From Dudresnaya verticillata (taxonomy: Eukaryota), in the NCBI GenBank assembly GCA_977862235.1, contig OZ374557.1:2294001-2358000 (forward strand): a stretch of 64,000 nt of DNA. The letters run 5' to 3'. Below the pieces are notes generated by a model that saw only the letters and a program-made list of their open reading frames with translations, searched no databases and had not been told where the DNA came from. Shown one piece after another: positions 18,175 through 56,200 of this stretch. Positions within the stretch are counted from its first letter, which is position 1, and every line of letters starts with the position of its first letter. Position numbers and translations under genes: made by a program.

Positions 18175-18407
18175 GATCCCCCTCCTTAAACGGCGCCACG
18201 TCCTCCGGCGCCCACCGTCACGGATTGCCATCGCTTCCGCGCCCACACATTCAACCGATACGGCTAACGCTCTCAACTTTCCCTTCTCCTGCGTGCGCCT
18301 TCTTCCAATATTACAGGGGAGAAAAGCAAGCGCTCCCCCTCCCCTTTCAACTAACATGTCGTACCCGTGCGAGCACGGCGACGAGAGCGCCGGGCGCGCC
18401 TACCTTC

Positions 18408-21186
18408 ATGGATGCTTCTATGCAAGCACATGCCTCTTCCTCGGCGGCTGCGGCACGACCCACGACGCGTGGTCGTGCGGACGTCACCGCATCGGAAGCC
18501 GTGCAGGTACCATCAGCGGGCCGCGGCTGGTCCGTCTACAATCCGAATCGGTTTGCTGCTCACACAGCCACAGCGACCGCACGGGCAGGGAATGCAGTGA
18601 CCCGCCATGACGAAGAAACGTCGACCAAGCATGATGATGAGGAGGTCCGACGTGGTGGTGAGGCGCTCAAATTGGCGGACCCTCCATCAATTCCGTTAAG
18701 ATCGCCTTCGACACCGATATCAACGCCGGTGCGGAGTATGAGGGCGAGCCCGCATCCTGCTGTCAACACTCCGAGACGGACGCGTGTGCCAGCGCGAAGC
18801 ACTATGCCGGCCGCAAGCCCTTGGATGTCGATAGGGCGTGCCTGTAGCGGTGAGGGCCCTGCCCCAAGTGGATACTGGCCAGGCCACCATTTCTATCACC
18901 GTTCTGGGCGCCCGGCGAGATCCGATGCGGAACGGGGGAAGGTGACACCGCCGATGACAGTGTTGTACTTCATCGAGGGTTATCCATCCGTTTTGGAAGC
19001 GCGACGATACCAAGCCGCTTCGGAGCAGCCATTCAAGGCAAACCAGCGAATTGGTTTCGTTCCCAACCGGCGGGCGTTTGTGTGGCAACGCCTATGGGTC
19101 CATAGCTACTGCCAAGAGCGCACCACTATTGTTTCGGATTCGTTTTGGTACCGTTGCCACGGAGAAGTTGGGTATACCGCGAAGGTGAGCCGCTTGTTGA
19201 CCAAGGCGTTCCGTCTACGGGGTGCGCCGATCGGGGTGCAGTTCATCTGCTTCGACCCACCGTATGACCAAATGGTGTGTTCGTTCTACTATGCCGACGG
19301 GTGGAAAGACGAGGCGGCAACGGAACACCGATTTCGGACGCGCTACCGAGACGGAATGCATGTGGGCGCATCCATATTGCACACGTGGAATACCAAGCAG
19401 TTCTTCCACCTTCCGTATCGGATGCCACGTGAGCTCTACCTCACAGCTCCGTCGTGGTGGGAGAGCTATGAGGTAACCCGTTGGCTATCCGTGTCCATGC
19501 CTTCTGTGGTGGCGTACTTCTCCGCGGACCTGCTCACTGAGCGGGAGTCGAATCACGAACATCCGAACGGAGAGCGTCCCCTGAACCAAGATAAGCTCGA
19601 AGTACTTTGGCACATCTTCCGATCGGAGCGGGCAATGCTGGTGCTATTTTCGTGGCTCCAGGTTGCCTACTACGGAGTTCGGTACAATACCAAGTTATCC
19701 GACTGGCGGAGCTTCCCGCGTGACGAAGATGACCTACCCGGAGGAGACTGTAGCCGTATGTATCTACTACCCGTGACGTTAATCGCCCTAATTCGCCCAG
19801 TTGGCGTAGCCTATTTGGTGACGGGTCGGTGTATCCCCTCCATCGGGTTGAGCGTCTTTTATCCGTATACGGAGAGCGGGATTGGCAACGCACTCCGGGC
19901 TTCTTGGGGTATAATTGGGATGAGGACCGTGTCTTATTGGTGCCCCCGCATAGGCCCGGAGTGGGCGAGCCATATTTCCTTCATCGGGAAGATCCTCGTC
20001 CGGAATGGTTGGCCTTAGAGGTGCAAGCCCATCCGGGTTATGCGCCTCGCCAAGCATCAACGGAGGCGTACCGTGACGGTTTGGAAGGGGCCGAAGATTA
20101 GGGGAGTTGTCAGGAGACAGAGGGACGTTCGCGTGCAATCGACCGGCGCAATTCCGTCAGGGTGAGGCAGCACGAAGCTGGGCCCTTCTTGGAGTAGCAG
20201 GAGGAAGTCAGGCCCGTCGCACCTGTGGCAGTGGATATTGAGAAAGTAGCCGCTCCAGTCCTCCCAGTGTTCGCTACACCCACGTCGGGCGATATGGGTT
20301 TTGAGACTACTACCCCGTATCGGATAAGGCCCCGACGCCCATAGACGTGGTTGCGCCTGCTGTGGCGGTGCCCAAGCCCGCGGTACCATCCAACAAGGGG
20401 GTTTGGAAGGAGAAGAACGTGTCGGAAGCAGCGCCAGGTACTGTACCAGCGGCATTGTCTCCGGCGAAGCGAATACCTGCAGCCGCCGAACCGTTCCCGA
20501 CAAGTGCTCCGCTGCCGGCACTCACTCCGACACCAGTGGTGAGTGAGGAACCGAGCACCGTACCGGAAGGGGCTCCAAAACGCCCAAGTGCCGAAGAAAT
20601 TGGCGACAAGCCTTTGGCTCCCTTGTTGATTCAGGAACCGTTACGGAAAAGCGATATCGCCTCTCCAGAAAAGGATACGAATCCACCGCCGCGGAAGGAA
20701 ATACCTTCATCCAAGTCGGGACCATCCACAATGGTGGTTTCCTCAACGGAGCATTCAATCGAAGCAGGGCTTAGGGATAAGCCGTCCATATCCTCGAAGT
20801 TATAGCTTCAAGAAAATGAGGATCCGGCCGTCACGGTTCCGGGTCACTTAGCCGCTACGGAAAGCGGGTTACAGGTGCTACGGGGTATTTGCCGTTCTCG
20901 TACACAGCGCTTCCCATTGCCAGGATCCGTTCAGGAGGGGTCAACTTTAGCAGAGGGACTGATGGAGAAGGTGATTCATCTCCGCGCAGTGGTCCGTCGT
21001 CAGCGTCGGCGTATGGATAATGCGATGCGCACCTTGGGCGACAATACGCAGCGTACATTCCAATCGGATCCGGCTGGAGAACCCGACTTACGAACTGGGC
21101 AGGGGGCAACGAGGAAGATAGAGTTGTCCCCGCTCCGAAGCGGTGTCTCCGTGACTCTTAAAGTTGCAGTTCGACGATCTCCTTAA
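18408..21186 (+). pseudogene. Antisense accessory ORF of E3 (long open core, later frameshifts and a stop)
   Basis: ORF 18042-20018 (first ATG outside the LTR at 18408) plus 19829-20101, 20347-20805 and 20875-21186. Homologous to the E0 and E5 antisense ORFs. Confidence 0.85.
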
Positions 21187-21261
21187 CGGTTTCATTTATA
21201 CCCCGACCTTACCTTGTGATAACCATTGTGCGTACCCATCCACTAGCACTCCAGCTGTCCG

Positions 21262-24200
21262 TTACGGTGAGCGACGTGTTGGATTGGCACGTCGCCGTAG
21301 TTTACCTTTAACGGAGGTCTTTTTGTGTTTCCAATACCGGTAGATGAAATTTTGCGGCAATTCCTCAGCGGGCTCAAAAGTGTCCTGATCCGGAGGGTAA
21401 CCATACCAGCGGACTTTATATGTCATCCCAGTGGGTTCGTCGCGGTGACCGACAGTCTTTTCGATCACATATTCCGTATCGGCTTGCAATGGTTCCGTCG
21501 CGGAGGGCGTAATACCTTCTGAAGGAGGTAATGCAGTAGTACCTCCTGGAGGTGGTCATACTTCTCCATCGACGGTTGAGGGTGTGACAGGCGGAACCGC
21601 TACAGGTGTCGGTTGAACAGCGACTCCGATCGGAACTTTCGTAATACGATCGATACTGACGGCGATTAATACCCCTTCCTTGCGGATTTTAACCACATGT
21701 TCCGTTTTGGATTCCACTTCCTAAGGCCCCGTGGCCCTCGGAAGGAGTTCCTTCATTTCCTGAGCCACCTCACCCACGTCATCCGGTTTGCCTTCCAATC
21801 GGTTCCGTTCACGGCGTTCTGCAGGCCGCAAGTTATGAGGCGGCCGGTCGAGATATACTTGATCTACACTACGGATTGGGGGCCTAAAGCGCACCTTACG
21901 GTCAAACAGTTCCTTGGCCTTTTGCTGAGCCACTGTCTCCTTCGTGCGTGCTGTCTGGAGCGCATACCGTAAACGGCGCATGGTGCCTCGCTTCTGTAGC
22001 ACCGGGGTCATATGCCCTTCCGTAACGGTTTCTTGATGCTCGACAGGAGCCCCCGGTACAACAATGTCCGATGGGTGGCGTGTCAGCACCAAATGAAATG
22101 GTGTTATTTCCTTGATACGGTGTACCTGCATATTGTACGCATACGTCAACGGTTGCAGGTACAAATCCCAATTGGAGTGATGATCCTCAACGTAATGGCG
22201 CAAACGTTGGGCGATTGTCTTATTAAATCGCTCAGCTTGCCCATTTGTCTGCGGATGGTAGGCAGCGGTGAGTAGGTGCCTGACTCCGAGTAAGGAACAA
22301 ACCGCATCAAAGAACTCTGCGGTCCGTTATCGGTTAGGACAAATTGGGGTGCGCCATATGCATACACCCAAAAGTCCAGAAAGGCGTTAGCCACCACAAC
22401 GGCTGTTGTTGTCCGTAACGGAATACCGCGCGTCAGCTTAGAAAACCGATCGGTTATTACCAAAACGTATATATAACCCCGTTTTGTCTTCTGAAGTGGC
22501 CCGAGGATGTCGATAGCGGCAAACTCCAAAGGTCCGCTAGCGGGGAAAGTTTCATAAACCTTTGATTCCGAAAGCGGCTTCCCTTCGTCTTGGCGCAGGA
22601 GCGACATGTCCGAACGGATTCAAATACATCGTTGGCCATATGAGGCCAGTAATAATCCTGTCGGAGTGTACAATACATCTTAATTCCGCCTGGGTGACCC
22701 GATGTCAGGGTGTAGTGGGATAAATACAATACCCGTCCACGGAGTTCGCTTGGCAGCACCTTCTGCAGAGCACCATCCAATTGGGACTTGGGTACCAAGA
22801 ATCCGTTACGGTCATAGTCAAATTGTGATCCAGGGGAGCCTAACGTATCGGCCTAGAGACGACAGAAAGAGTCGCGGGCTTGCGCTTCGAGGAAATCCTC
22901 CCTGATTATTGTCTCATCCTTAACGTCGGATTCTTGGATTACAGTAAACCGTGACGGTATTGTGTCGGGCTTGTCAGGGGAGGCGGATGCACTTCCACTA
23001 GCGGGCTCCACGGCGCATACTACGTCATTTACCGTAGCGGTTTCTTGTGATGTGGCCCAATCGGTTAAATAAACTCCATGCTCATATAATTCGTCGGCGG
23101 TGTTTTCGGCGACAAAGCAAGGTATCTCTTCATCCAAAGGTCTATCGTCACTGCCATCCGTTCGGAGTCGCGACATCCCATCGGCGAGTTGATGTTTAAT
23201 CCCTGGACGGTATTGCACATCCAATTCAAATTCCGATAGGCGGAGCCTCCACCTGGCCAGGCGGCCAGATGAGTCCGCGAGGTTAAGGATCCATCGCACG
23301 GCATCGTGATCCGTTCGGAGAATAAACTTGTCGCCGTAATGGTATGGTCGGAGTGTTAACATGCTCTAGACCACGGCTAAGCATTCCTTTTCGGTTGTAG
23401 TATAATTTTTCTCCGCCCCGGCGAGGTGCCGGCTCCAGTATCCAATAGGAAGGTGATCGCCATTCGGTTGTTCCTGGAAAAGGACACAGCCGACTTGATG
23501 GTCACATGCGTCAGTGTCCAACGTATATTTATATCGGTGACGGGGTAGATCCAATATAGGTGGAGAGATGAGGCATCTCTTAAGTTCCTCGAAGGCTTCG
23601 TATTCCGTCTCGGATAATATACCGACCTCAAAGAGTGAGTTCTTGCCGGTTTTCTTATTCAGCGGCGCTGGAATCCGAGCGAAGTTGGGTACAAAGCGAC
23701 GATACACGTTTCACATTCCCGAGACGGACCGTAATTCCGTTTGGTTAGTCGGCGGCTTCGCAACCTTAACGGATTGGATATTCCGATTATTCACTTCTAA
23801 TTTTCCGGGACGGATAACATGCCCCGGGTATTGTACAGACGCGTTGAAGAAGTCACACTTTGACAACTTCAAAGTTGCCCCATCTTACCTATCGTCAAAG
23901 CGTAAGGAAATACTTCAGGTGGTGGAAATGTTTCGTAACGGTTTTTGAGTATAAGATTACATAGTCTAAGTGGACGAGGGCAAATTGCTATTTAAGCGTA
24001 GAAAGGATTATATCCACTGCCCGTTGGAAGGTTGCCGGTGCATTCTTCAATCCGAATGGCATTCTCCGAAAACGGTATAAGCCAAAATGGCTAGTGAAGG
24101 TAGTTTTGTCCCTTTCCTCTTCCGGAATATCGACTTGCGAATATCCGCTATTGCAATCCAGAGTGGTAAATACAGTAGCTTCCCCTAGGGAATCTATGCA

Positions 24201-24920
24201 TTCATCCATCCTGGGCAAGGGGTATGAGGCCCTAACTGTTACGGAATTGAGCCTTCTATAGTCAACTCAGAACCGCATGGTGCCGTCCTTTTTTGGAACG
24301 AAAACCACGGGACTGACCCACTCCGATGAGGCTGGCTCACTTGCCTTAGCAGAAAGCATGCATTCAATCTCTGTCTTTTCGAGATCTCGTCGCTTATGTA
24401 TGGCACGGTATGGGGCTTTGGTATACTGGCTTAGCTCCGGGAGTTAACTCGATGCGGTGCTTGGAAGTTTTAATGTTGCCAAGATCGCCACTCCACATCG
24501 ACTTGTATTCCTCGAGTAGGGTTAAAATCCGTTTATAGAGCGATGCTTCTTCTGTAACGATCTGGACTTGATCCGTCCAGTCGGTAGTATTTGTAGTTTC
24601 CGTTAAGGGTTTGCTTACTTCATTGTCGTGCGGGGATATGCTGCTGGCCTTTTCCAAGGTAAGGTTTGAATTAAATGATTGAATATTTCCTCCCCTCCTT
24701 AAATAGAGGTATACCGTGAACGGTAAAAATGGCAGAAGGGTCAGCAGTAGCGAGGCCCACGAAGGTAGATTGGGGCAATCGTACCGGCTTGTTAGAAAAA
24801 TTAGAGACCCAGATCCGAAACGGTTTGTGAGGTACAACATCCATAATACCGTTAGCCATTAACGTAAGGTGGTTAAAAGCCGGCTTAGGATGATTTTCTA
24901 AAAAGCATAACCCACCCATA
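21262..24920 (-). pseudogene. pol: E3 pol (RT, RNase H, integrase, chromodomain)
   Basis: MPFGLKNAPATFQR, YLDD decayed to HLDY (~23965), DTDACD, EKECLAV, HPG...C..C, IDILGP, LTDNG, ATGP, and EYVIEK..GH..YKVRWYGY..DTFEP chromodomain. Confidence 0.93.
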
Positions 24921-25498
24921 ACACGCATTTGAGCGATTTCAGAATACGACTTTCGAAACAGACTGGAGTCGAATAGCTATTTTCTGGTAGCGTTAGAAAG
25001 GGGAGCGTCCCGTGAGTACGATGGTCAAATCCGATTGGCTAACGGACCATTCCTTCGAACATTATGGCGGTTTGCGTGAATTTACCCAAAATATTTCCAG
25101 GTATTCTGAATTTCAATGTCCTTGCGTCGATTTGGCCCGGGCGGCCCACTCCGCGGTCCGCACTGGGCCAAATTAGAAATTGCCGGCCCGCAGCATGCCC
25201 CTCGCCGCGCGCGCTGCATGCGCGCCACATCGCCCATCTGGCCCGCCCCGCGCGTGCTCGGCGCCGCCTGCAGACTACCCGTCACCAGTTTTCGGCTTTC
25301 TGGTGCAACGGGTGCACTGTGCTGTGCGCGTCTGTGCACGAATCCGCACGCGACCGCATACAGACTGCCTCGTCACCCGCCCCCCCGCCCCGCCCCGCGA
25401 CGCACAACTCCTTGGGCAAAATCTATTGTCGCGGTTGCCCACCCTCGTGTACACCGTGGATCCCGATTATCAACTAACCCCTTTACTGTTCTTGCTAC

Positions 25499-26115
25499 TT
25501 ACACATCTGAACCAGGGTCCTCCACCGTCCACTCCTCCGGCACTTCCCACCCTAAAAGAGCCATCACCGCTACAGCCCCTCGCATCACCCCCTCTCCAAC
25601 CAGGCCAGCCCTCTCAATCATGTTTTGAGCCCACCCCATCATCTGGACCCGGAGCCAGACAGTTGTGTCCAGCTCCTCCGCAGCCAGCGCGCGAGCCTCG
25701 TGCACCTCAGCGCACAGGGCACGGACCTCTTCAACCAGCACCAGCGGGGCTGGGTCGGTCGGTAGCATTCTGGCTGTGTATCGCCGACCCCCGGCCTCGG
25801 TCAGCTTCCTTTTGTTCAGACGCATGTCACTCCATGTTGGTAGCGGCCCTGAAAATGATCTCGATAGAGATGTAACTCTCAGGTTTTGTGTTATGAAGTT
25901 ACGCAATTACCTGCAGGGCTGATGTAGTTGATGTAGTGCACGTCAAAGAAACAGTAACCACCTAATTCAGGACTGCAAGTCCTACAAGACAGCCTCGCAC
26001 ATTGACTGAGGTCGACATCCACTCGTTCGCGCGTTAGCTTCGCCAATGCAGCAGTAATAGGCGACACATGACTCTCGCATGACGCTGCTTCGAGCGATCG
26101 CTGTAACCACTTCAA
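25499..26115 (-). other. Possible degraded ORF of unknown function
   Basis: Adjacent ORFs 25891-26115 (Cys/His-rich) and 25499-25906 with protein-like composition; no recognisable motif. Confidence 0.25.
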
Positions 26116-26149
26116 TCATCAACTGAATCCTTCCTGAACAAGCCGACGA

Positions 26150-26935
26150 TTTGCAGGAAGCACGACGGGGTTTGTGCACGTGTTGACAGGGTCGGACCCA
26201 GAGCAAGTTCGGCTAATGTCAGAGGTGGTCGTCCTCACTGATCTACAGGACAGAGTTGTTGGTAGCATGTCGAAGAAGGAGTCCCATCTGCAGGTGCACA
26301 CACACCATGGTTTCAAAAAACCTGCCGCTGCATCGTGCTTTCTCGGTGATTTTGTTCGATACCAAGGGGCGCATGCTTCTCCAATAACGTGCAGCGAAGA
26401 AAATCACCTTCCTGTCGTTCTGGACGAAAACCGTATGCGCCCATCCGCTCCACACGCCTGCTGAGCTTGGTCGGCAGGACAGTGGAGATGCGCTTGGAGG
26501 GGTCATGCGTGTTGCCATTCGCAAGCTGTCTCATGAGCTAGCTCGGTGACAAAGGGGGAGAGGTCGGTATGGACGACCTGCAATACATGACTCGCATTCA
26601 TTACCGTAGTGAAAATGACGGAGGGGTGTGGGGTGAGCATGAGATTTATTACGTGTTCATGGGCGTGAAGGACGTAGCGCTATAGCGATATTGCTCCTGA
26701 ACCAAACGACGTACGAGCAGTACGCTATGTTACTCGAGAAGAATTGAAGGGGCTTTTCAAGGAGGCGCAGATCTCCTCGACTCTTCGTCTTACGCCTTGG
26801 TTCTACCACATTGTTGAGGGTTTGACCTGGTCTTGGTGGGACAAGATGCTGAAGGAGGGTATAAATGCACTCGATACCTTGCAAGCTTCAAGAGCTGTAC
26901 ATCGCATGGGAACATGCGGTAAGCACTACTCATAA
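26150..26935 (+). pseudogene. IDI1: Isopentenyl-diphosphate delta-isomerase type 1 (frameshifted)
   Basis: DPEQVRLM, SKKESHL, LLHRAFSV, LLQ*RAAKKITF, CAHPL, RKLSHEL, WGEHEI and LTPWF spread across several frames. Confidence 0.92.
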
Positions 26936-27041
26936 TAGCAAACTTCTCGCGGTCAATGCAGCGTAATCGCAGCCGCTAGAACAATAAATGAGGTGGTGCA
27001 CATATGCTCAGAACGTCTTGCCGGCACATCAACTACCGAAT

Positions 27042-28250
27042 TTACAACCCTTTGTTCCTGCCAAAACCCGCTATAGTGGATGCTGGTCGGGTGTTCCTCA
27101 GCTGTGCAAGTAGATCTCCGATATTAGTCTTCCAAATGTTGATGCGCTCAGGCAGCGGCTGCCACTCTTCTCGCGTAAACATACGCTGCGTTGATCGATA
27201 AATCGCGACCGACGAATTCAGCTGCTTAATCATCGCATCCTCCAGACCTGAGCTGATCGCACAGGTAACCCAATCCTCGACCTCGCCCTCGGAAATTTGC
27301 AGAGCAGTCGCAGTCATACTGTATGCGAGATCCTGACAGTCTATTCCAAGTGAAGCAAATGTGAGCAGGCTCATCTTGTTTTCCGCAATCACCACGTCAA
27401 TCTCGTACTTTGCAAGAAGAGCATCATTCCTGCTTCTGAACTCCGTGAAAACAGCAAGATCGTCGCGGACAAAGATGATAATGAGCTCGAACAATAGTTT
27501 TGGTCGCCGTCCTGCGCTCCGAATCGCTTAACTGAATCTAGTTCAAGCAAGGTGTCAAATCGATACAACTTCGGGAGTAGAACAGCCTGGACAATTACAT
27601 CTACATCAGCATCTTCAACGGGCCGATAATCTTCATCCGTATCACTGCAATACAAACCAAGCTGCTTAATGTTGAAAGAAAATGCGTCCTTAGCCATGTC
27701 TGCCAACTTGAGAGCCTCATATCACACCCGATACATATTTGCGCTTCTCTGGGACACCAACCTGCAACTGGCGTGAGAAAGTATCGATTTTCGGCAGAAT
27801 GGTGTCGACAGTCTTCGGCATTAGCCCAACACTGACCGCCAAGGAAATTGTAGCTCCAAGGAGCGAGCACCGCTTTTGCACGTGCTCTTCGTTGACAGAG
27901 TAACTCTGTTGTAAATCAAAGCCATGCAACGCAGTCTGAAATTACCGCTGGAGACGCCTGAGCAGAGCCGTTTGCAAATCTTGTCCACAAGATCATTGTC
28001 CATAGAGCACTCCTTCTTGACCCAGAGCAGAAGCTCCTGCATACAGCCTTCAAGCGACCCTAGGCCGTCGGAATCAACCGCCAGACCCGTTGCGACGATG
28101 AACGCGTCTCCAAGGGCCTTGGTTTCACCTGGGGAGTCGCTGTTTGCCACGGCAGATTCAACATTCTGCGTTAGGCAATCATTGGTGAAGGTGGTGGCGG
28201 TGAAGGAGTTCCGGAACGACCACCGTTCCCCCGGGCAAGTTTTTCTATGC
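27042..28250 (-). pseudogene. EIF3M: Eukaryotic translation initiation factor 3 subunit M (PCI domain), frameshifted and 5'-truncated
   Basis: YRFDTLLELDSVK, KMSLLTFASL, ALQISEGEVEDWV..AI, STQRMFTREEW...W. Confidence 0.85.
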
Positions 28251-28257
28251 GTACAGT

Positions 28258-30470
28258 TTGAACATATCTTTCGCCCTGCCCTCTGCGAGGTATCAACATT
28301 TCTCTCAAGGAATGACATTGCTCACGGGTATGTTCTTCTTAACGCTCACTATCCTCTATGTAATACGGTTGTTGAGACAAGGGCGCAGAAATATCACGCA
28401 TGAGCAGGTTTGGGTCTTCTTCCTCGATGTTATGGCATTACTCTACTTCAACCCTCTTCATGCCATCAACCGTTTCATAGAAACAAATGGTGGCGAAAGG
28501 ACATTGAATTACAGTACCTTCCCGGATTGGTATAACAATTGGGATGTGGCCAGTGATGTGTTGCGTGATGTGGCCTTTGCGGGATTCTCTTCCTTCTACC
28601 TTTGGGCAAGCCTGCACTCTTACCGCATTCTGGAGGCCACTAAGAGATTGGGCTGGGGCTTCTATATCCCAAAGTTGCTCGTGCTTATCCCGTACGTTGT
28701 CTCCAAGTTTGTGATTGTGTACGTGTTGGACATGACCCTGTCTGAAGTGTCTATGCTCTCAGCTGCTGCTTTCTCGTTCTACTTCAGCGCGTATCACGTG
28801 TGGAGCCATTTGAAGGTAGAGCTCCTCCTCTGTATCCCGTTTTCAGTCATTGAATTGCTGTTCATCGCAATTATTGGGTATGAGGCATGGAAGACAACCA
28901 ATGTGTTGGAGAAGGCACCATACATGAAGCATCGGTGCAAACGGGTTGGATTCAGGTTTTTCTTGTATACCAAATTTGTTTTCTACCCTTTGTTTATTGG
29001 TCTGAACACTCGTCTGCTGTTCAGCAGACCGAAAGGTGAAAGTATCATTCTTCTGGTTATTGGCTTCAACATGGCGAGGGCAGATGTGACATGGATTTAT
29101 ACGCACAGCCCGGGGCTTTTGGTGCTGGGTTATGTCATTGTGACTACTTATGTTAATCTGCCCCATAATTGTACCGGGGGTGTGAAAGCGTTTTTTCAGA
29201 AGCGTAGAACTGGGCGAATCTGGGTCTCGATGGTCATTCAGCATTTCAGACTCATCATCGAGTCAGCAAGCTTCGATGAACGGCCTCAAGTACCCGTTGC
29301 CTGAAAAAGACGTCACATGGGCCAATGATGAAGAAACCCCCCGCTCTGTTGTTGACAATGATGACGAATTGGAACAACAAATCGTTGAACCGATTACGTA
29401 TAGAAAGAGAGAGTCGAAGGACAGTCTTGAGCTGAAAGCAAACTGCTTTACGATGCAGACGAACGTCATTATGTTCAACTTTGCATGGGTATGTCTATTA
29501 TTATGGGACTGCAAAGTTTGACGGCTTCATTCCTAGAGAAAACCCGTTGCCATTTGAATATGAGATCGTTGCTGCTGTGAGAAGCGAGGCAACAGATACT
29601 CAAGCACGTGTTGTTGATTGCAGTGACAGGGTCATTGAGACGTTAAAGGGAACAACGTCAATGCGAAACTCGAATACATCATTACGGATGAGCCATGAAT
29701 ATATTCGTAACGTGGTGAAGTCAAGTGTCTATGGTGAAGATGAGACGACTCGATTGAAGCGATTATTCGGCAGAAGATATCTACACGGTAAGATTCACAA
29801 GCGATTTGCGATTGCCTATAAGAGTGTTGCAGATGAAGTGATGGAAGTGGTGCGGCAATTAAGAGCAAGAAGGTAAAGACCTATATTCTTGACCGGATAC
29901 AGTCTAGGAGGTGCACTCGGAACAATCTGCAGCCTGGATCTATGGGTGAAGTTGGATGTGAGCCGACGTGAAATTTTCGTGTCCACGTCTGGATCACCTC
30001 GAGTCGGGAATCACGACTTTGCAGGAGTGTACAAAGAAGTGGTGCCTCTGCACTGGCGCATAGTTGTGGATCCAGACATGGTTGCCAATTTACCAAACGT
30101 GGGGTACACTCATGTCGGGAAGAAGGTGGTGCTGACTCCACACGGAGAGATGATTATCGAACCCAACGCAGTGGAACAGCGGCCATGGACAGGTGAGACG
30201 GCCGGTTTTGCATATCACCGCAAGGCGAGCTACATGCTTGCAATGCGGGCATGGTGCGTAAGAAATCACGGGATGACATACACGCCCGTATTCTGGCCGT
30301 TCCCGGTGCGACCCGAGGACAAGCGGCAGTTCGCTGGGGCGGTCCCAGAGGAGGAAGATGCGGCTAGGCGCAGGGTGGCTTCTAAGATCATTCGCATGGA
30401 CGCGATGGTGGATGCACCTAGCGCAGGGGACACGGAACTGGCGAATATGAATACAGCAGCACAGAAATGA
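28258..30470 (+). pseudogene. Multi-pass membrane protein with a C-terminal class-3 lipase domain (frameshifted)
   Basis: Hydrophobic helices with HEQVWVFFL..LLYFNP, then KGTTS, HKRF, TGYSLGGALGT, GSPRVGN, WRIVVDPDMV..LP, YTHVG. Confidence 0.85.
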
Positions 30471-36818: not shown

Positions 36819-36849
36819 GCTCCGCAGCAGGCGCGTGCCCAGCAGCCGG

Positions 36850-40242: not shown

Positions 40243-40338
40243 AGTTCCTTCCAGCTGGAAATGTGCAGTGGACCGTCCGCCGCCCTCGACTGGCAGACTG
40301 TACATCCGGTACAGCCCAAAAATAGATGGAGCAGACTT

Positions 40339-45227: not shown

Positions 45228-45306
45228 TATCGACCAAGGATGAAGTCGACCAATCAATCTGATTGCGTAGCAAGGAGTAGTACTTGGAGACGCGCGTCGG
45301 TCTTGA

Positions 45307-45810
45307 CTACGTGTGCTTACGGCCGTACCTTTCGTCGTCGGTAATGTTAGAAACGAAAAGATGTCGACGGTTGTATTCTTGACGAGCGACGTAATACGAA
45401 TTACGCTCCTGGCGGCTTTTGAATTTGCCATGTCCCCGCGAGAGTACTTCCAGCACAATAGCTGTGTCGGGATTTGACATCAGCTTCTTTTCCTCTCTCT
45501 GCTGAATATAAACTAGGAAGGTCTTGAAACCTCCAACTCGTTCCGTTTGTCCGTAGTTCTTTGCATTTGCCTGTCCATGAACGCGTTCCATAAATGTAGG
45601 AAAAACAGACCGGTCGAATAGTCTGATTCCCAATGCCTCAAGGCCGGTGAACCGCTTGCCTTCGGAGATTCAGTTGTCAATTAATGCGAGTAAGTTGGAC
45701 TCACCAATGCGGCGGACCATATCTTTGTCAGTTTCCTCTGGTCTGCGCAGGGCATTGAAATCCAGACACGACAGATCCTGGCTCTTCCCAAGCAGTTCAT
45801 CACTGACTTC
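45307..45810 (-). pseudogene. 5'-truncated hypothetical gene
   Basis: The frame of ORF 45307-45633 extends, with one stop, up to the E4 junction at ~45810. Confidence 0.4.
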
Positions 45811-46381
45811 TGTGGTGTTGCGGCGGTACCCATCTTCGGAATTTCGGCTTGACCAACAAGGGATACCGGGGGGTAATGGTGAAAAGCAAATTTCCTTAAC
45901 GGGGGAAGGATTGCCTTCACATAGCGGTCGATGAAGGTAGTCCCCAAAATAAACGGAGCAGCTAAGTTCGCGACCACGAGAAAGTGGACGCGAGCACGGA
46001 GCTCTCCGATACGGACGAAAAGTTGGATCTGACCAAGGGAGCGGATAGCGCGATTAGATGCATCCCGCAGTGGAGGACTGGTGGCGGGCGAATGATGGGT
46101 AGCCATTGACGGGGAAGTCGCCTGGCACTAGTGAGATTTGGCCCCGCGCCAGAGTCCAATAGGGAGGTTATAGGAAGCATCACACTATCTGTCCGTCCCA
46201 CGGTAATTTGAATCTTATAATTTTGTTTTTGCATAACACATATAGGATCGCTGGTCTGAAAAGCCAATGGGAGTTCCGTAACGGTATCTCGCCGATGCCC
46301 GGGCGAGTCAACAGTCACGAGAGGTGGAACGTCGTGAGGCGGGGATGGCGGCGCCCTTACGCGTCCCCCCTTGCGTTTTCC
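45811..46381 (-). pseudogene. pol: E4 aspartic protease (start of pol)
   Basis: ORFs 45962-46318 (LLDSGAGP) and 45681-46106 (FILGTTF). Confidence 0.9.
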
Positions 46382-48834
46382 GAAATCAAGGGTGCACCAG
46401 TCGGACCCGCCTCCATGGGCTCGTACAATTCCGCGTATTACACTCCGTCATGGTCCTCCACCGATAATATCGGGGCATTCCGTTGCGGAGGGGGCGTTTG
46501 CGGCTTGCCCCGATTCCCTTGCGGATTCGAACTGGTTCCCACGACAATCCTGCCGTCTACAGGGTAGTGCTGCTGGGAGTTGCCCTCGCGCTCTTCCATC
46601 AGCTTAATCCGATCGGCGTCGTTTATACACGGGCAAACGACATGTTCTGCGGAAAGACAGATGCGACAATTGCCACTTCCATAAAGGCATCGGACCCGAG
46701 GATCCGACTCATCCCGTAGCGGAGGTGCTGATTGCTGCTGTCCTCGCCCATCGTGGGAATTATTTCCGTAACGGTGATTCGGCTGCTGTTGGGGGCCAGG
46801 AGCCGGGCGAGGACCACCATATGGGGACGTTACGCGCGTGGCATCCTGGGCGGCGTAGGGTGAACACTTTGCGGGGGTGAAGAGTACGGGGTTGAAAAGG
46901 TAACCTCCGTACTTGTTCCCGTATCGGCATCGTGGCCTCCCTCGACTGCTAGCACTTTATCATCCGTAGCGGAAAGATGTCGTTGCGGCTCGTAGCGTAC
47001 ATCCGATACGGAATCCAGCGATAACACCTTAGACGGGCGCGCTTTATTGCGCCCATCAAAGACGTGAGCCGGAACAGTTTGGCGTCGAACTGCCCGATGG
47101 GACTGACTGAGGCCAGTCGCGTAGCGAGTGATGGCCTGGTAATCCAGCTGGGAATGCGTTGCAAGATAATTTCGCATCTGTTGACGCATCCCAGGTAGGA
47201 GCGCCTCGACGAACAGTGACTTCAATGCCCGATCGGAAAATACAGTACCGCAGCGGAGAGCCTTTGCCCAGAGTTGGTTACAGAAGTGCTTTTCCGTCAT
47301 GGCGGATGTTTGCCTGAAATTGCTGACATCCGTATAGGCTTCAGCGATCACTTCATCCGTATCGTAAGTTGTCAGTAGGAAATTCACCACCTCGGAGTAG
47401 GAGCGGAGCATCTCAGCCTGCTCCACATCAACCGCCATGGTACCTCCAGCAAGGCTAGCCTGTAGAAGGGCTTCGGCCTGTCCTTTTAGGAAAAACTGGA
47501 AGCACCAGATGGCAACCCCTTCGGGGATGTCATTGATATTGCAACCGTCACGGAACTTGGCGAGAAATCCGAAGACGGTAATAGGGTCCGTCCCATCGAA
47601 TGTATGGGACGACATCTGAACGTCGGGTTTCTTCCGTATACGGCTCGTGTTCTGTGAGAACTTAGAGCCGTATGTCTTACTCCTCTTATCCAATCGGTAG
47701 GTGCGGTAGTCCAGCGCCTTGACAAACGTGTCATGTAGCGGCCGGATTACCTCTACCTTTCCGGATTTGGTACCGTGTTTTCTGGCCGGGTGCCTATTCT
47801 CTCTATCCATTACGGAGGAACGCTCTGAGTCTGAATCCTTAGAGGAAGAGTATTTATGCCTTTTTTCGCGTTTCCGCGATCTTCTGTTTCTCCTTTTCCG
47901 CGAGCGGTGTTGGCCATCTTCTGAGCTTGTCTCATTAGATTCCATACCGGATTTGTGGCGTCCTCGCTGGGTGTGGGCGCCCATGTGTGACCGACGGAGC
48001 GGGTCAGAGCGGGAGTGTCGGGCATCTCGATTACGCCGACCTCGACCGGTCCTCCGACTCGGATGGGGTGAGCTGGACGCATCGCTGAGATGTTCGCTGC
48101 CTCCACCTGATCGAACCGGAACGGTATAGCGCTCTTGCTGATAGCGCCCTGGCGTAGGCATATCTACTGGCAAGGAGAAACTGTAACGGTGGCTAAGTGT
48201 GTTTTGGTCCCATAAGGGCGTATTGATGTTGAGAATCCGTTACGGGAGCCGGTGGCAGTGTCCCAGAGGGTACTGTACCCGGCTGTAATCCCATAACGGG
48301 GGGTTGTTGCGGATGCTGCGTTCTTCCCTCGACCGGGAAGTAATTCCGTAACGGTGGTTGCTCAGTAAAAGCTTCCGTAGCGGGAGGCCTTGCCATGCCG
48401 GGAGCAATCTGGCTCTCGACCTCGTCGGCCACCTTTTCCTGTAGGATCAAAGCTTGCACTATCCGAGGAACGTGCTGCTCGAGAAAGGATTTAACCAAAG
48501 ACGGAACAGTTTCCGAGAGGGATATCTCCACCTCTTTCACCATTCCAGGTTGTACTTCCAATCGGGGATGCTCTAACACCCTAGGAAGGACTTCCGACAG
48601 GACCCAGTGGACCCGATGGGATTCCGGCTTGGGTTGCGGAGCTGCCTTCTTCGAGGCGTCTGATCCGACACGGGAACGGGGAGATTTACCAGCAGCACCC
48701 TTTAGGATGTCTTCTGGGTTCTCCACTCCGGCACAAATTTCACCTCCTTCACTGCGCAGACTGCGCGCCGCGGGGGTAGTGTCACCCGCTTTTGGTTCCG
48801 TAACGGGAGGGTCCTTGTGTTCTTCGGTTTGCAT
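46357..48834 (-). pseudogene. gag: E4 gag with zinc knuckle
   Basis: ORFs 48193-48834 and 46830-48173, plus a shifted C-terminus with CRICLSAEHVVC. TAA at 46357-46359. Confidence 0.85.
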
Positions 48835-48986
48835 GATACCTTAACGGATCACAGCGGTTTTTCTTGCTTGTATATCCAATATTCCGTAACGGGTTGTCGG
48901 TACAGCCGGATTCCTACCGTGGCAGATTTCGACGGCTGTTAAGAGCCGTCACGGTTGGAAGAAATGTCTTCCAACCGTGACAGTGT

Positions 48987-49003
48987 TCTAGGTCGGGAGA
49001 CGA
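48987..49003 (-). promoter_or_regulatory. E4 primer binding site
   Basis: TCGTCTCCCGACCTAGA, one mismatch from the E1 PBS, 5 nt from the LTR end. Confidence 0.75.
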
Positions 49004-49363
49004 AAAGATGTGGTGGAATGAAAACCCACGAACTCCTTAACGGACAGCTGGCCTGACTTTCCTACAAGGGACGAGAGCGACACTACCTCCATGCGATGGT
49101 AGAGCAGTTCGCACCGAGACGGGAGAACAGCGAGCGGCTAACCGAAACGGATATTGGGAAGCAACAGACCAAGGGGGGTACAAGTGCCGAGACGGACTTC
49201 GTAACGGTGGTGATGGTAGACCGGAACGGGCTCGGCGCGGAGAAAACCGTAAAGGAAAGAGCTACAGTGCGATTGAGGCTCAAGGGTTGCTTGGCCGTTT
49301 ACCCTAGGATCCGCTGCGGTGCCACCCTGATATACAATTCAGGATGGCACCGATCGGTCCGGT

Positions 49364-50039
49364 TGTGGTGTAGTGAAAGGCACGCCTGTAAGGAGAGCTG
49401 ATCAGGCAATCCCAATAAGGAGTGATCTCACACGGCACCGGGGTGGTAGAGCTTAGTTCGTAGACCGAAGGGAGTACCTCGAGCGGCAAAACCTGTAAGG
49501 AGTAAAGGGACGCAACAGGCAAGGGTGACGGTACAGTGCCAGGACAGCTACACCGGGACGGGGGTAAGAGGAATCCGTGCACGGGACTGGCGAGGGAAAA
49601 CTGTGAAGGAGTATGAGGGTAAGGCTTAGGGTAAGTCACTTTGCCCAGGGTTGCGTACCCGTTTACTGTAGGACTCGCGGTGGCCACCCATTAATATACT
49701 GGGAGATACGCCCCGCGGTCCGGTCCGTGTGTGGGCCAGACCCCAATGGATCTGGTCCACCAGGTGGGTCCGGCCCTACTGGTCGCGGTCACCGTTGCGG
49801 ACATGCTCGGCATTCTCACTGGCCGGCTGATACAGCATTATTAAAATTACCTAATTACAAATAAAGCAACTACTTGGCTCCTATTGGTGGTGTGCACAGA
49901 CTCCAGCAGGGCATACAGTGCTACTGTGTCGCTGGACTCCCGCCTCGGCTTTTGGCTCGCGCTTAGCAGAGCGCGGGTTATCGACGGTCGCGCGTCGGCC
50001 CGCCCGCCATCCGCACTCCGAAACGGCCACTTCACCACA
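49364..50039 (-). repeat. E5 3' LTR (676 bp)
   Basis: Terminal motifs present; adjacent PPT TTTAAGGAGGGGGTC on the minus strand. Confidence 0.88.
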
Positions 50040-50104
50040 GACCCCCTCCTTAAATCGCGGCACGTCCTCGTGCGCCACAGCATGTCTTCTACAAATCCAC
50101 TCAG

Positions 50105-52883
50105 GTGTATCCAACGACGGAGCGAACCTCATCAGTGCACTCCACCTCGGGCAAGTCGACCAACGTTCAAATGCAACCCGGTGTGCCTCTAGCGATGGCG
50201 GGCGGTAGCACTGACCGATCACGGGGACCCTTCCAACCGACACGGCGTACAACTTCGGTGGGGGCGGCTCCTGCGCCGGAGACAGAAGAGAGAGAAGGCG
50301 GCGGGCCCGCGGAAACCATAGCGGGGGTTGTGGCGGCAACGAGCGCAACGCCGACGCTGCCAGCGCGTGCAGGTAGCCCACGGGTGCCGCGACGGCGTGA
50401 TGACGGCGAGGCTCTACAGACGCCCAGTACGCTTCCGGATCGGCAGATGGGGCTGGAGGCACAACGGCCTGGCCTTTCAAAATGCAACACCGCGATGGAG
50501 GCCCTTGGCTGTCGTCGAGCAACTCCGCATGGGCGATACGAGGCGTATGCGCAGGGTCTCCAGGTTGGTGTAGGCGGCGCACCGTCGGGTCCACTGCCAT
50601 ACGCGCCGGGGGCACCGGGGAGTTACCATGGGCATGTGAACTCGACGGGCTACACCGATGAGGAAACTTGGCCTGGCCGGGAATATGATCATCGCACCGG
50701 TCGGTGTCAGCGTACCGAAGAGGAGCGCGGTATGTTTCGTCTCCCCATGCCCGTATCGGTGTTTGTTTCCAACTATGATGGCACCCTCGAGGGGCGTCGC
50801 TACAGCGCCGTCACAGACTCCGGTGGGTTAATCAATAACAAGTGGTTCCCGAATCGGCGTGAGGAGATTGGAGAGCCAGGTGGATTCACTCAAATTGTAG
50901 AGTGCGAACTCCAACCGGGTGTGACATCGTGTGGTTGAGGTCTCAGGAAGAAGAGGGCTATCCCATCAAGGTGTGTTGGTTGCTGGCGATGGCCCACCGA
51001 CTGCGAGACCATCTGGTTGGTGTCGACTTCCTATGCTACGAGAAGCCGTACGACCAAGGCGTCCATTGGTTTGAGAATCCGCAACGGTGGGCTGACGACG
51101 CAGCGAAAGAGCATCGACTCCGGTTGCGGAGTAGAGATGGGCGCCGCCTCGGAAGGGTGATACTCCACACCTGGAACACGAACGAGTTTGTCCAGGTGCC
51201 GCCGGGTGCGCATCGTCGATTGTACTGCATCGCTCCGGATTGGTGGGCTGAGTACGAAGTCACCCGTTGGCTGTCAGTTCCAACTCCGACGGTGGTGGCG
51301 TACTTCTCCAATCGGTTTATCCAGCATCGCGACTGGCAAGCTGCACACACACGTGGAGAGAAGTCAATTGACCATCCGCTGATGACTTTGTTGCGTCGGA
51401 TACTCCGAGCGGAATGGGCAATGTTCGTCCTTTTCTCCTGGTTACAGATCACCTACAGGGTTGTCAGAGCCAATACCAAGATGACCGACTGGAGGGCATA
51501 CCCGCGGAACAGAACGGATCCGGAAGGTGGCGAGTGCGGGCGCATATTCAAGCTACCCGGAACGGTGGTTACCCTTATACACCAAGTTGGAGTAGACCGG
51601 TTGCTTGAGAGGACCGAATACCCCTTGTCGCGTGTTGAGCGTCTCTTCTCGGTCCACGCAAAAACCAACTGAGAGCGAACGACAGGGTTCATCGGCTACC
51701 ATTGGGATGCAGACCGCGTGTTGTCGGTGCCACCACTCAACCCCGGACGTGGTATGGTCTATTTCCTGTCGGAAGAAGACCCCGAGCCGGTGTGGTTGAT
51801 CAGCGAGCAAATGTCGAGCTGGCACGCGATGCGCTCCCGCTCGAGATTCTACCCCAAAGCGGAGGGGCCATCAAGGGCTCCGCCATCACGCGATTGGGCA
51901 CTCCATCCGGTGTGCATCCTCAACAGGGGCGCCTTGACAGTCCGTCCGCTGACGAGAGTGCCCCAGTGGGGGTTAACGAGATCAAGAGGGTGCGTGTGGA
52001 CCCTAGGGTCCTCGTGCCAAGAGAAGCCCCTGGCGTAGAAGCCGTCAAGGCGTGGGGCGACCGCACGACCTCATCGCCCAAGATGACAGTAACGGAGTCT
52101 CCTCCTGTAGGAGCTGAGATCTAGAAGCAGGGAGATTCGTCGGGGGTGGCCGCAACGTCCACGCCAATCGGGGCTCCGAAAGCCGTAGTCTCACCGGGAA
52201 TCAGCAAGAACACCAAGTTGGAAAAAGCGGCGGGTGCCGTGGCGGTAGTTGGTCCGAAGCCCACGCTAGTAGCTGCAGCAGCGGCTAAGTTGGGTCCCGT
52301 CGGGGAACAAGAAGACTCCGAAGTGGGAAAGGACACTACACCGGTGGGAACCTACCAGGTGGAGTCATTAGCAACCACACGCCCTGGAATCGCAGTGTGG
52401 ACTACTGTACCGAAGCGGAGCGAAGTTGCCAAGCCGGTGTCGCCCGCGTTGAGTGACTCCGTGATGTTCGTAGCTGCTGCGGGTCCAGATGGAGGACCAC
52501 CACGTCATATCGGCCCCGTGACGGTTAAGCAAGAGGAGGATACCCCGAAGGAGATGGCGAGTTGGACCGAAGCGGAGTTGCGCGTCGATGGAGCTGTCGT
52601 GCAGCGACTCCGCGACGGGTGTAGAGATGCGGGTATGTCTCTTCCAACGTCGGCGAACGAGTCCATCAACACCGCAGTGCTGTGGGTCGGGCGTCTGGTG
52701 CGCCTGCGACGTACCATTCGCACTTTGCATCGTCGCATGACAGACACCGGTAGGAGACTCACAATGATCACCGCAAGAGTGTATGATGAGGACATTCCCG
52801 ACTCGGAGGAGAGCGCGGCCAAAGAGGAGGATACGGGGGCTGATCTGGCGCCACCAGCAAAGCGCCTGCAGAATGCAGTGTAA
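50105..52883 (+). pseudogene. Antisense accessory ORF of E5
   Basis: Pieces 50105-50938, 50902-51672, 51718-52038, 51702-52124 and 52146-52883. AATAAA at 52906-52911. Confidence 0.85.
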
Positions 52884-53267
52884 TTGCGTAATGATGCCAC
52901 TTGTCAATAAAATCTCGTGATTTGTGTGAGCTCCCTTCCACTGGCGGAAGGGAAGTGGAATAACACCACTGTGGAGTGAGCCCCGAAGCGGCGGGGGTTA
53001 CCATCCACCATACAAGGCTTTGCGTCCGATTGACAACCACCTAATACCAGAAGTGGTTGCGCGCTCGCCAGCGATACTCCAATATGGAGTAGAGCCCCTT
53101 GGGCAAGGGTTCTGTGGTTACAGAGTCCACAGATCATGCCCTTTTTTGCCAACGCCAAGTCACCAAGAAGGAGTAGAGACCCTTGGAAAAGGGCTTCGCG
53201 ACAACGGAGCCCACAGGTCATGCCCGATTTTGCCAAAATCACTACGGCTTGTGCGAGTAGCAAATGG

Positions 53268-56200
53268 CTATCGACGCGTGGACGCTCGGCGACGTCGGGC
53301 CGCAGTTGCTGCCGAGCGCCTTCTATTCCAAGAGCGGTGTATGACGTTTTGTGGCAACTCCTCGGCGGGTTCATACGTGTCCTGGTCTGGTGGGTAGCCG
53401 CACCAACGCACCTTGTAGGTCATGCCTGTGGGTTCTTCGCGGTGTCCCACGATCTGCTCGATGACATACTCCGTGTCGGCATCAATTGTCTCCGGAACGG
53501 GGGCAGGAATACCGCCTGGCGTTTAGGGCGTTACAGTAATACCACCTGGTGTTTCGGGTACTACTGTGGTGCCGCCCGCCTGCTGGGGTACCGCAACGTC
53601 CACGTCGGTGTGTGGCGTAACCGGCGGAGCCAATAGCGGCGCCAGCTGTACGGGAACTCCAATTGGTACCATAGTGATACGATCGATGCTAATGGGAATC
53701 AGGACGCCGTCCTTCTTGATAGTGACTACAGTGTCCGTTGCGGTGTGAACCTCGTAGGGGCCTGTCAATCTTGGGAGGAGCTTCTTCATTTGCTCCGCAA
53801 ATTCACCGACGTGGTCAGGGCCTTGACCCAATCTGTCGCGTTCCTTCCGTTCGGTGGGTCGTAGATTACGCGGCGGGCGATCTACGTAGACTTGATCGCT
53901 ACCGCGAACCACCGGTCGGAAACTCACCTTATGGTCGAAGAGGGTCTTAGACTTCAACTGGGCTGTAGTCTGTTTGGTCTGCACCTCCTGTAGGGCATAG
54001 CGCAAACGCCGCATGGTTCCCCGCTTTTGGAGCACGGGCGTCATACGCCCCTCCGTAACGGTTTCTTCCAGCTCCAGAGGGGTGCCACGAATAATAATAT
54101 CCGATGGGTGTCGAGTTAACATCAAGTCAAAGGGAGTAGTATCCGTAATCCGGTGTACCTGCATATTGTAGGAGTAGCTCAACGGCTGTAGGTATAAAAC
54201 CCAGTCGGTGTGGTGATCCTCGACGTAGTATCGAAGGCGCTGCGCGATGGTTTTGTTAAACCGCTCGGCTTGCCCGTTGGTTTGTGGGCGGTAGGCAACG
54301 GTCAGGAAATGCCGCACTCCGAGTAGGGCACAGACAGCTTCGAAGAACGTTGCCGTGAACTGTCTTCCATTGTCGGTGAGTACAAATTTAGGTGCACCGT
54401 ACGCATACACCCAATGGTCTAAAAGTATGTTCGCCACCACGACGGCTGTAATCGTCCGTAACGGAATGCACCGTGTTAGTTTAGAAAACCGATCGGTGAT
54501 GACCAGTACAAAGACGTATCCCCGTTTGGTTTTCGGCAGCGGGCCCAGTGTATCCGTAGCGACAAACGCCAGTGGGCTACTCGCGGGAAATAGTTTCATG
54601 GACGTCTGATGCTTAAACCTCGTGCCCTTGGTTTTGACACATGAGCGGTAACTCCGAACGGTCTCGAATACATCGTTAGCCATATGTGGCCAATAGTAGT
54701 CTCTCCGTAAGGTTTAGTACATCTTAATTCCACCAGGGTGTCCCGACACGAGGGTGTAGTGGGCAACATACAGGACTCTGCCACGCATCTGTTGCGGTAC
54801 CAACTTTTGGAGTGCACCGTCAAGAGCAGACTTGCGAACAAGAAACCCACGTCGGTCGTAGTCGAATTGTGATCCAGGGGATCCCATCGATTCGGCTTTA
54901 AGCCTGCAAAAAGTATCCGTTGCTTGCGCGGCTATGAACGCCTCACGGGTAAGGGTCTCATTTCGCATATCCTCTTGTTCGATGAGCGTTTGCCGGAGTG
55001 GAGTGAGTGGTACTGTATCCTTTTCAGGCGTAGTATCCGTTTTGGTGTCTCCACTTTCAACGCCTGGGAGAGGCTGCTCGAGGCATCCGGTTGCTGGGAT
55101 TGTTTGCAATTGGTTAGTTGCACACCATGTTGCACTACACCATTAAGAGTCGTTTCCATAACGAAGCAAGGCACTTCCTCATCGAACTCAGCTTTGTCAG
55201 CACCACCTGTTCGGAGTCTTGACATACCGTCAGCAAGTTGGTGCTTCATACCAGGGCGGTATTGTACTTCGAACGCAAATTCCGATAGGCGTAGGCGCCA
55301 TCTTGCTAAGCGTCCAGACGCATCGGCTAAACTCAATATCCAGCGTAATGCGTCGTGATCCGTACGGAGTATAAACGTTTCACCGAAAAGGTAAGGACGT
55401 AGCGTTAGCATACTCCAAACGACAGCAAGGCACTCCTTTTCAGTGGTTGTGTAATTCTTCTCCGCATTGGTTAGACTTCGGCTCCAGTAACCCACTGATA
55501 GATTATCTCCACTAGGTTGCTTCTGGAGAAGGACACACCCAACTTGGTAATCACAAGCGTCGGTATCCAACGTATAATTGAAACCATGACGGGGTAAAGC
55601 CAATATTGGAGGGGAGATTAGTTGTCTCTTTAACTCCTCAAAGGCGTTTAACTCCATTTCGGTGAGAGTTCCAAACTCGAATACCAGACCCTTGCCGGTT
55701 TTCTTATTGAGTGGCGAAGCAATACGTGCAAAATTGGGAACGAAGCGTCGATAGACGTTACATAATCCTAGAAAAGAGCGCAACTCCGTTTCGTTGTAGG
55801 TGGCTTAGCCTCCTTGACGGCGAGAATATTCTTTCGCTCCACTTCCAGTTGGCCCGGGCGCACTATGTGGCCCAGATACTGTACGGAAGTGTCGAAGAAG
55901 GCACGCTTTGACAATTTCAGAGTTACACCTGCGGAACGGAGTAGCGTGAGGACCTCCTTAAGGTGTTCGAAGTGCTCCGTGACGGTGTTTGAATATACAA
56001 TCACATGATCTAGGTAGACTAAGGCAAATTGCCATTTCACCGTAGATAGGATGATGTCAACCGCCCGTTGGAAAGTAGCGGATGCGTTCTTGAGCCCAAG
56101 AGGCATTCTCTGGAAGCGGTATAATCCATAATGACTGGTGAAGGTAGTTTTGTCACGCTCCTCCTCGGGGATCTCTACTTGCCAGTAGCCGCTATTACAA

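Follow-up and report, generated by a model that had tools for sequence, protein, structure and literature searches.

The window analysed here is a 64-kb stretch of the red alga Dudresnaya verticillata (contig OZ374557.1, positions 2,294,001 to 2,358,000, forward strand), in which decayed Ty3/gypsy chromoviruses, nested in one another, flank 20 kb of other genes. Four of the chromovirus copies, named A, C, D and E, carry the spaced palindrome CCG-N3-CGG at a density of 2-9 per kb, with the exact word CCGTNACGG as its peak. This palindrome would be the lineage tag of one red-algal chromovirus group, and one of several short fixed-span palindromes which appear to be spread through whole elements. 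In the tagged lineages such a palindrome recurs once per 100-250 bases, genes included. Selection during replication of the elements probably maintains the tags, and an element-encoded factor, most probably the protein of an antisense open reading frame (ORF), probably reads them on DNA. The explanation placed first, at somewhat less than an even chance, is that of selected DNA tags through which this antisense protein marks the copies of its lineage. The phenomenon itself is real and broader than first noted; it is possibly a motif-based self-marking and a new mode of recognition. If true, motif-based self-recognition would extend from plant DNA transposons to retrotransposons and to coding DNA.

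Palindromic tags of the chromovirus lineages

The first-pass annotation of this DNA had described CCGTNACGG as strongly over-represented, with 23 start positions and three mirrored copies, and all of these positions were recovered exactly. The 26 exact matches in the window compare with a mean of 1.54 and a maximum of 4 in 100 dinucleotide shuffles, and the 23 matches in the 59,998 non-mirrored bases with 1.3-3.0 expected under Markov orders 1-5. The three mirrored copies all lie within 59999-64000, which is an inverted copy of 53759-57760, and when two pol copies are aligned, the sites 22020 and 54053 coincide, as do 22413 and 54456, each pair being common by descent; about 21 sites are therefore independent. 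Nine sites were found in C, eight in D, four in E, none in B, one in A (1172) and one in the central block (33654), in agreement with the 17 sites first placed in E3 and E4 (here C and D), none in E1 (here B) and one in the central block. The word was also said not to be codon-driven. Synonymous-codon shuffles (n=300) of 18 segments, of which one was supplied out of frame and several had frames assumed from stop-free ORFs, gave 1.3 +/- 1.1 copies against 14 observed, and all three reading frames are occupied, so that claim stands; the enrichment survives the dinucleotide, Markov 1-5 and synonymous controls alike, as the annotation had proposed to check.

As a motif, the exact word is enriched and represents the consensus of a looser dyad; the real motif is W-CCG-N3-CGG-W (W being A or T). 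Its flanks favour A/T and its inner bases favour T and A. Among gapped pairs CCG-N3-CGG ranked first or close to first in each of A, C, D and E, and its count in C, D and E together was 90 against 10-19 expected. Among the spacers between CCG and CGG, N3 was seen 97 times, N2 24, N4 25 and the others 5-13 (expected 13.7), and inverted and direct arrangements of the same halves showed no rise over expectation. The two halves are independent. A perfect palindrome is ruled out as a requirement of the tag, since 21 perfect palindromes were found and 21.0 are expected if the halves vary independently. The commonest variant is CCA...CGG (35 against 11), and other paired forms showed mild excess only, as in CCA...TGG (20 against 9.7). 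In the synonymous shuffles CCG-N3-CGG occurred 11.4 times on average (maximum 21) against 54 observed; the sites fall in all three reading frames and reach 3.4-5.6 per kb in the coding parts of C and D. Their spacing is approximately random, one per 220 bases, with near-exponential gaps (coefficient of variation 0.97 and 1.07). The 20-kb central block served as host-DNA control, and over its 20.1 kb the dyad occurred twice against 4.4 expected. Codon use is ruled out as source of the tags by the synonymous shuffles, tandem amplification by the absence of any exact CCGTNACGG site inside the nine tandem-repeat rows of the window, and CpG decay by the CpG mutation comparison, which gave no CpG-specific hypermutation (0.265 against 0.285; 0.276 against 0.244).

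A scan of all spaced palindromes ranked CGTC-N3-GACG, CGTC-N4-GACG and CGCC-N3-GGCG beside CCGTNACGG, and these locate to element B and to B-type long terminal repeats (LTRs). They follow the rule CG-x-y-N3/4-y'-x'-CG at 8-13 per kb. Of 170 CG-N7-CG sites, 57 have complementary inner bases, where other anchors and other regions give about 1/16. The halves of this tag co-vary, with 49 matched against 22 mixed combinations among six arm types, and the pairing ends at the CG, an outer pair being present in 9 of 57 and 2 of 31 sites. Synonymous shuffles gave 4.4 and 2.0 where 21 and 12 were observed, and the CCG tag was reciprocally absent. The internal part of B has 88 CG-hairpin sites (14 expected), and CCG-N3-CGG occurs only three times in B. 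The B-type LTRs have 9-13 hairpins per kb and 0-2 CCG sites each, even when nested in E. CG-hairpins are at or below expectation in C, D and E, and number 10 against 10.7 expected in the central block. The two tags are mutually exclusive and swap at element junctions, including those of the B-type solo LTR in E, so their cause travels with the element and not with the chromosome region. Both the lineage specificity suggested earlier and the prediction that E1 would have a different motif were borne out, as the tag follows element ancestry and B carries its own, equally strong palindrome.

Related elements carry other clade-specific fixed-span palindromes. Integrase scans yielded 151 loci, and the tag survey covered 37 of them picked to represent the clades, each with 5 kb of sequence ahead of the integrase match and 4 kb behind it. 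In a large clade, palindromes of any sequence with 4-bp arms and a 4-base spacer were in 2.7-4.6-fold excess, their span being fixed at about 12 bp. The same span of about 12 bp was found in L090, L091, L092 and L095, where the outer base is C (84 of 125 in L091), and long stems with variable loops in L045, L089, L006, L088 and L002. In L016, L026, L029 and L080 the excess is confined to the element body, the flanking DNA being at background. No palindrome excess was seen in L073/L050 and L010/L011/L028/L069. A quick tree of 98 rows placed no member of the C/E lineage among the 151 loci, and scans with RNase H over viral contigs and with gag over metagenomes gave no relatives and no further copy of the CCG lineage. 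None of the scanned loci came near the 6- to 8-fold excess of CCG-N3-CGG in the window, the maximum being about 3-fold with small counts. As tags defined by complementarity escape ordinary motif finders, the phenomenon may be widespread and overlooked. Mechanism aside, the tags assign fragments and solo LTRs to lineages.

A few further loci deserve mention. In a distant gypsy group, L117 and L127 have an excess of dispersed CGT-N3-ACG (19 against 2.1 and 18 against 2.3). The gag of L117 is PNMA-like and its pol bears a PHD finger; an additional ORF on the sense strand encodes a TatD DNase domain. A 1.6-kb integrase fragment, L001, has ACG-N3-CGT eight times against 1.8 and no CCG-N3-CGG, which is possibly a third 9-bp dyad. 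L086-L095 are eukaryotic chromovirus contigs present within several bacterial genome bins, as contamination.

Probable selection on the tags and their candidate reader

That the tags are maintained by selection of some kind is held with good confidence. The alignment of the 12-bp clade had 32 copies, of which 27 entered the test of private changes, with L044, L013, L025 (poorly aligned), L007 and L020 omitted. Among 3227 private changes, synonymous tag losses numbered 80 against 137.7 expected (z -5.3) and non-synonymous losses 127 against 149.7 (0.85). Tag gains were 33 against 26.5 for synonymous and 42 against 39.2 for non-synonymous changes, and a control geometry gave 36 against 39.9, with ratios of 0.90 and 0.98. 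Changes making a G-U pair were depleted like those making A-C (0.62 and 0.50). With losses depleted, gains barely raised and no tolerance of G-U, the pattern in this related clade points to purifying selection on the palindromes at the DNA level, rather than to mutation bias or RNA folding. Non-synonymous private changes exceed synonymous ones; many private changes would have occurred after insertion, and the loss deficit would then imply strong constraint during active replication. In seven pairs of 60-77% identity, tag sites were kept identical in 54 of 273 cases against 3 of 72 for the control. Compensating changes were above the null in three of the seven pairs (6 against 0.87, 4 against 0.54 and 4 against 0.76), with a null that ignores the clustering of conserved codons. 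Within the window, CCG sites were kept between the pol of C and E in 4 of 12 and 4 of 7 cases, against backgrounds of 0.12 and 0.10 (p 0.046 and 0.003).

Judged from its sequence, the antisense ORF is a genuine gene, conserved and under purifying selection (dN/dS 0.18-0.19 in its domain). It is present in A, C and E and weakly in B. An exhaustive HMMER search with a three-copy profile identified 89 relatives, some of them hypothetical proteins that Gracilariopsis chorda has in multiple copies. Neither a word-indexed nor an Atlas search with the protein returned anything usable, and no Pfam family was above cut-off among 28 of the relatives. In 23 of the 151 loci at E<1e-5, and weakly in five more, the family profile matched the antisense strand downstream of the integrase, many of the loci being too short or too distant to reveal the gene. 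L092 carries an intact 1476-aa pol together with an intact 1007-aa antisense ORF. The domain was modelled confidently, with a predicted local distance difference test score (pLDDT) of 86.5 and a predicted template modelling score (pTM) of 0.88. The 330-aa model had no fold match: the lowest Foldseek E was 1.4 against PDB and 1.3 against the viral library, and the VIA fold search reached at best Z 3.2 (root-mean-square deviation 5.7, 121 aligned). The N-terminal 190 aa taken separately were without a match as well (E 2.1; Z 2.5, deviation 6.4, 59 aligned). This absence is not proof of a new fold. Columns of Arg, Trp, Tyr, Asp and Glu are conserved in the protein, coiled-coil matches are weak, and five of the seven long homologs shown have a basic C-terminal tail such as AKRPRR, a predicted nuclear signal. 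Together these features suggest an oligomeric nuclear protein, and make the antisense protein the best candidate reader of the tags.

In the proposed mechanism, the tags would form a dense array of weak sites by which such an oligomeric protein recognises and coats copies of its own lineage, and the coating would keep these copies expressed or serve the handling of complementary DNA (cDNA). Protein and tag would drift together. Tags with co-varying halves may be read as small DNA hairpins, and the C/D/E lineage would have moved towards sequence reading. A self/non-self code that extends over the entire element, its coding sequence too, in which an accessory protein of unmatched fold reads small DNA palindromes by span and self-complementarity, stem-end bases are lineage-specific, and barcode and reader co-diverge, is offered tentatively, its chances lying clearly below even. 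Antisense accessory ORFs of LTR retrotransposons are a long-open class, and a candidate target readable from sequence gives them a testable function.

Several observations weigh against selected tags read by the antisense protein. The main fact is that clades without tags carry the antisense gene, with matches in five of the six loci L073, L050, L010, L011, L028 and L069. The protein has no structural relative that would indicate DNA binding, and as tag, antisense protein, Gag, reverse transcriptase (RT) and integrase track the same clades, the reader is not singled out. The co-varying halves in B misfit an ordinary duplex reading. The dimer site proposed by the first-pass annotation is supported in part: it would agree with the dyad symmetry and the independent halves of C, D and E, but a plain duplex dimer site leaves the co-varying halves of B and the related clades unexplained. 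As for selection, the loss and gain test comes from a related clade and not from the lineage of the window, and its star-like family copies reuse the same sites and are not fully independent, so z is overstated. Non-synonymous losses in that clade are also slightly down, and its shared changes gave 24 against 28.9. The selection test in the C-anchored clade gave 15 against 17.8, and between A and E the CCG sites were kept in 7 of 13 and 7 of 16 cases against backgrounds of 0.45 and 0.37. Finally, the centre base of the CCG dyad on the sense strand of the element is T 40 times against A 16 times (p 0.005), in gag/pol and the antisense gene alike, whichever strand codes, and this polarity hints at a single-stranded step.

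Such a step is central to the alternative that Gag, RT or integrase reads the selected tags on single-stranded intermediates, as dispersed hairpins for packaging or cDNA handling which favour the genome of their own lineage. RNA viruses have dispersed packaging signals. Besides the sense-strand polarity, this would accommodate the co-varying halves and 3-4-base loop of B and the related clades, the coverage of the whole genomic RNA by tags, and the long-stem hairpins of the five loci named above. It is nevertheless considered unlikely, because G-U is tolerated neither among the changes nor in the standing counts (482 against 707, expected share 0.42), the loop of the C-anchored clade is strand-symmetric (G128/C127, T94/A105), and the CCG tag, whose commonest variant, CCA...CGG, unpairs the sense strand, would have a stem of just 3 bp. 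Of the pooled groups, G-U was weakly favoured in one (p 0.015) and A-C in another (p 0.004), and the rest favoured neither.

A functionless mutational or repair signature of an element enzyme is more doubtful still. It could arise by fold-back copying of RT or by directed mismatch correction, a model proposed for the cyanobacterial palindrome HIP1 (Elhai 2015, PMC4390886). Pairing restricted to Watson-Crick pairs, lineage specificity, spread through genes and compensating changes would all be accounted for, mismatch correction at the time of replication would also mimic the loss deficit, and in the neighbouring geometry 4+5+4 non-synonymous gains are raised (54 against 33.9). However, gains in the main geometry are 1.07-1.25 times the null where about fourfold is needed, and tag changes in the 12-bp clade favoured neither the 5' nor the 3' arm. 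The stems of the B tag, moreover, end at a fixed outer edge with no growth, and the CCG tag is sequence-specific with independent halves.

It is improbable that a host factor (MYB-like or some other dimer) binds the tags, or that they shield the elements from host silencing, with different lineages exploiting different host factors. The MYB binding core is YAACKG, and TAACGG, which the annotation had pointed to as such a core, is enriched in the window (33 against 9.4 expected). Everted CGG dyads also resemble Zn2Cys6 and papillomavirus E2 sites, and G. chorda has been reported to methylate its transposable elements, mostly in non-CG context (PMC8566409). The core is not enriched as such, however (TAACTG 2 against 5.4, CAACTG 6 against 8.8, CAACGG 23 against 15.2), and 13 of the 33 TAACGG lie inside full dyads, so the MYB-core reading is weak and was rejected. 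Neither tag is enriched in the host DNA of the window, sites of this kind are expected to cluster in LTRs yet run through pol, and the sequence-free fixed-span palindromes of the related clades misfit a transcription-factor motif. An artefact of composition, codon use, repeats or assembly is barely credible, for although 3 of the 26 copies come from the mirrored tail and two pairs are common by descent, the controls on composition and codon use refute it, no exact site lies in a tandem-repeat row and the gaps are near-exponential.

Comparison with known systems

VANDAL transposons of Arabidopsis carry short family-specific target motifs of VANC proteins at high density (PMC5735166). The tags described here are similar in being dense and family-specific, in differing between related families and in accompanying an accessory gene with conserved and variable parts. 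Motifs of VANC proteins, YAGTATTAY for example, have no palindromic form, share one orientation, lie mainly in non-coding DNA and multiply by tandem repeats (PMC5735166), whereas the dyads here are dispersed over gag, pol and the accessory gene, their turnover being by substitution, and the elements are LTR retrotransposons and not DNA transposons. The VANC analogy drawn in the annotation therefore applies to the dense family-specific motif and breaks down in location and origin, the tags being coding, dispersed and free of tandem repeats. Pfam and fold libraries gave no sequence or fold link of the antisense protein to VANC, no direct comparison with VANC being made.

HIP1 and the alternate HIPs of cyanobacteria are GC-rich palindromes in and between ORFs, with other words in other lineages (PMC4390886, PMC5861425). 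The present tags are likewise over-represented palindromes in and between ORFs, independent of codons, with a conservation that is read as selection. HIP1 is an exact unspaced word over a whole bacterial chromosome and is tied to methyltransferases (PMC4390886, PMC5861425); the tags, in contrast, are spaced, degenerate or merely self-complementary, and confined to one transposable-element lineage of a eukaryotic genome. No methyltransferase domain was found by Pfam in the chromoviruses of the window. In their working the tags may resemble VANC motifs or HIP1, yet by this comparison they would belong to neither system.

The aORF-3R class (Grande gene23, RIRE2, Retand, Boty) comprises antisense ORFs of plant and fungal LTR elements between pol and the 3' LTR, conserved across copies and without known homolog, for some of which a nuclear location or role has been suggested (PMC7264820). 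The gene described here agrees with them in position, orientation, conservation and lack of a Pfam family (28 relatives). In its account of these ORFs the review links no cis-motif to them (PMC7264820). No account of such tags in retrotransposons was found in the literature covered, Repbase entries, supplements and most subscription papers lying outside that coverage.

Architecture of the window

Chromoviruses are recognised by the order protease, RT, RNase H and integrase, by TG...CA LTR ends, a 5-bp target duplication and a chromodomain on the integrase. The elements here have Pfam RVT_1, RT_RNaseH, rve and Chromo, and target duplications AGACG and CCTGC, and named relatives of their gag and integrase occur in Chondrus crispus and Agarophyton chilense, which by itself makes a florideophyte red alga the most likely host. 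Element A is a chromovirus 3' region (1..3203, plus strand) with 14 CCG-N3-CGG (4.3/kb), and pieces of its broken antisense ORF lie at about 1664-3205 (minus). An older B-type LTR begins at 3221..3667 (plus), is preceded by a polypurine tract and continues at 16233-16620, being split by the insertion of B; it carries the CG-hairpin tag at 11-13/kb. The CCG-tagged antisense region of A joins this B-type polypurine tract and LTR directly at 3203-3221, so the junction is a lineage chimera or a large deletion and forms a natural test case for tag inheritance. Element B (3668..16227, plus) is a full-length decayed chromovirus with target duplication AGACG, and its LTRs (3668-4541 and ~15358-16227) are 94% identical. 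A weak broken match to the antisense family at 13868..14442 (minus) is in the expected position and is suggestive only (E 0.04 and 0.23).

Element C (16840..25100, minus) is represented by a 3' LTR, the antisense region and a broken pol, with 36 CCG-N3-CGG along with its CCGTNACGG sites. Its antisense ORF at 18408..20018 (plus) has 536 stop-free codons from the first plausible ATG. The conserved domain of about 300 aa is at ~18900-19889, and a predicted coiled-coil tail lies in separate downstream pieces at 20305-21186. Element D (45201..49307, minus) retains a 5' LTR piece, the primer-binding site, the 5' untranslated region, gag and the start of protease, with 19 CCG-N3-CGG in 45201-49005. 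A Reb1 Myb-associated match in its gag (E 0.008) was below cut-off and is not trusted. Element E (49364..59998, minus) has a 3' LTR, the antisense ORF, pol and gag pieces, and CCG-N3-CGG at 2.2-8.6/kb across the LTR, antisense and pol parts. Its broken antisense ORF (50054-52883, plus) ends in a basic PAKR tail. The B-type solo LTR in gag of E (58762..59666, minus) has target duplication CCTGC and 10 CG-hairpins against 1.7. The inverted tail (59999..64000, plus), which differs from its source by 1 mismatch in 4002 bases, reaches the end of the window and is not independent evidence; it probably arose by fold-back in the assembly, or else by rearrangement in the very recent past.

The central block (25101..45200), used as internal control, contains host genes and other mobile genes. 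Among them are eIF3m-like (27042-27527), class 3 lipase (29877-30470), DUF7869 (32126-33136) and TIR-domain (37768-38724) pieces, several of which look broken. Two ORFs at 40339-43412 (minus), in a region without either tag, are probably part of another mobile element; the second (40339-42174) has an N6/N4 DNA methylase domain (PF01555, E 9.5e-7) with a DPPY motif. The gag knuckles of D (46650-46680) and E (58670-58710), both on the minus strand, are of the form C-x2-C-x4-H-x2-C, which is shorter than the C-x2-C-x4-H-x4-C of many relatives. The primer-binding core GTCTCCCGACCTAGAA is common to B (4542-4562) and D (48987-49007) despite their different LTRs and tags.

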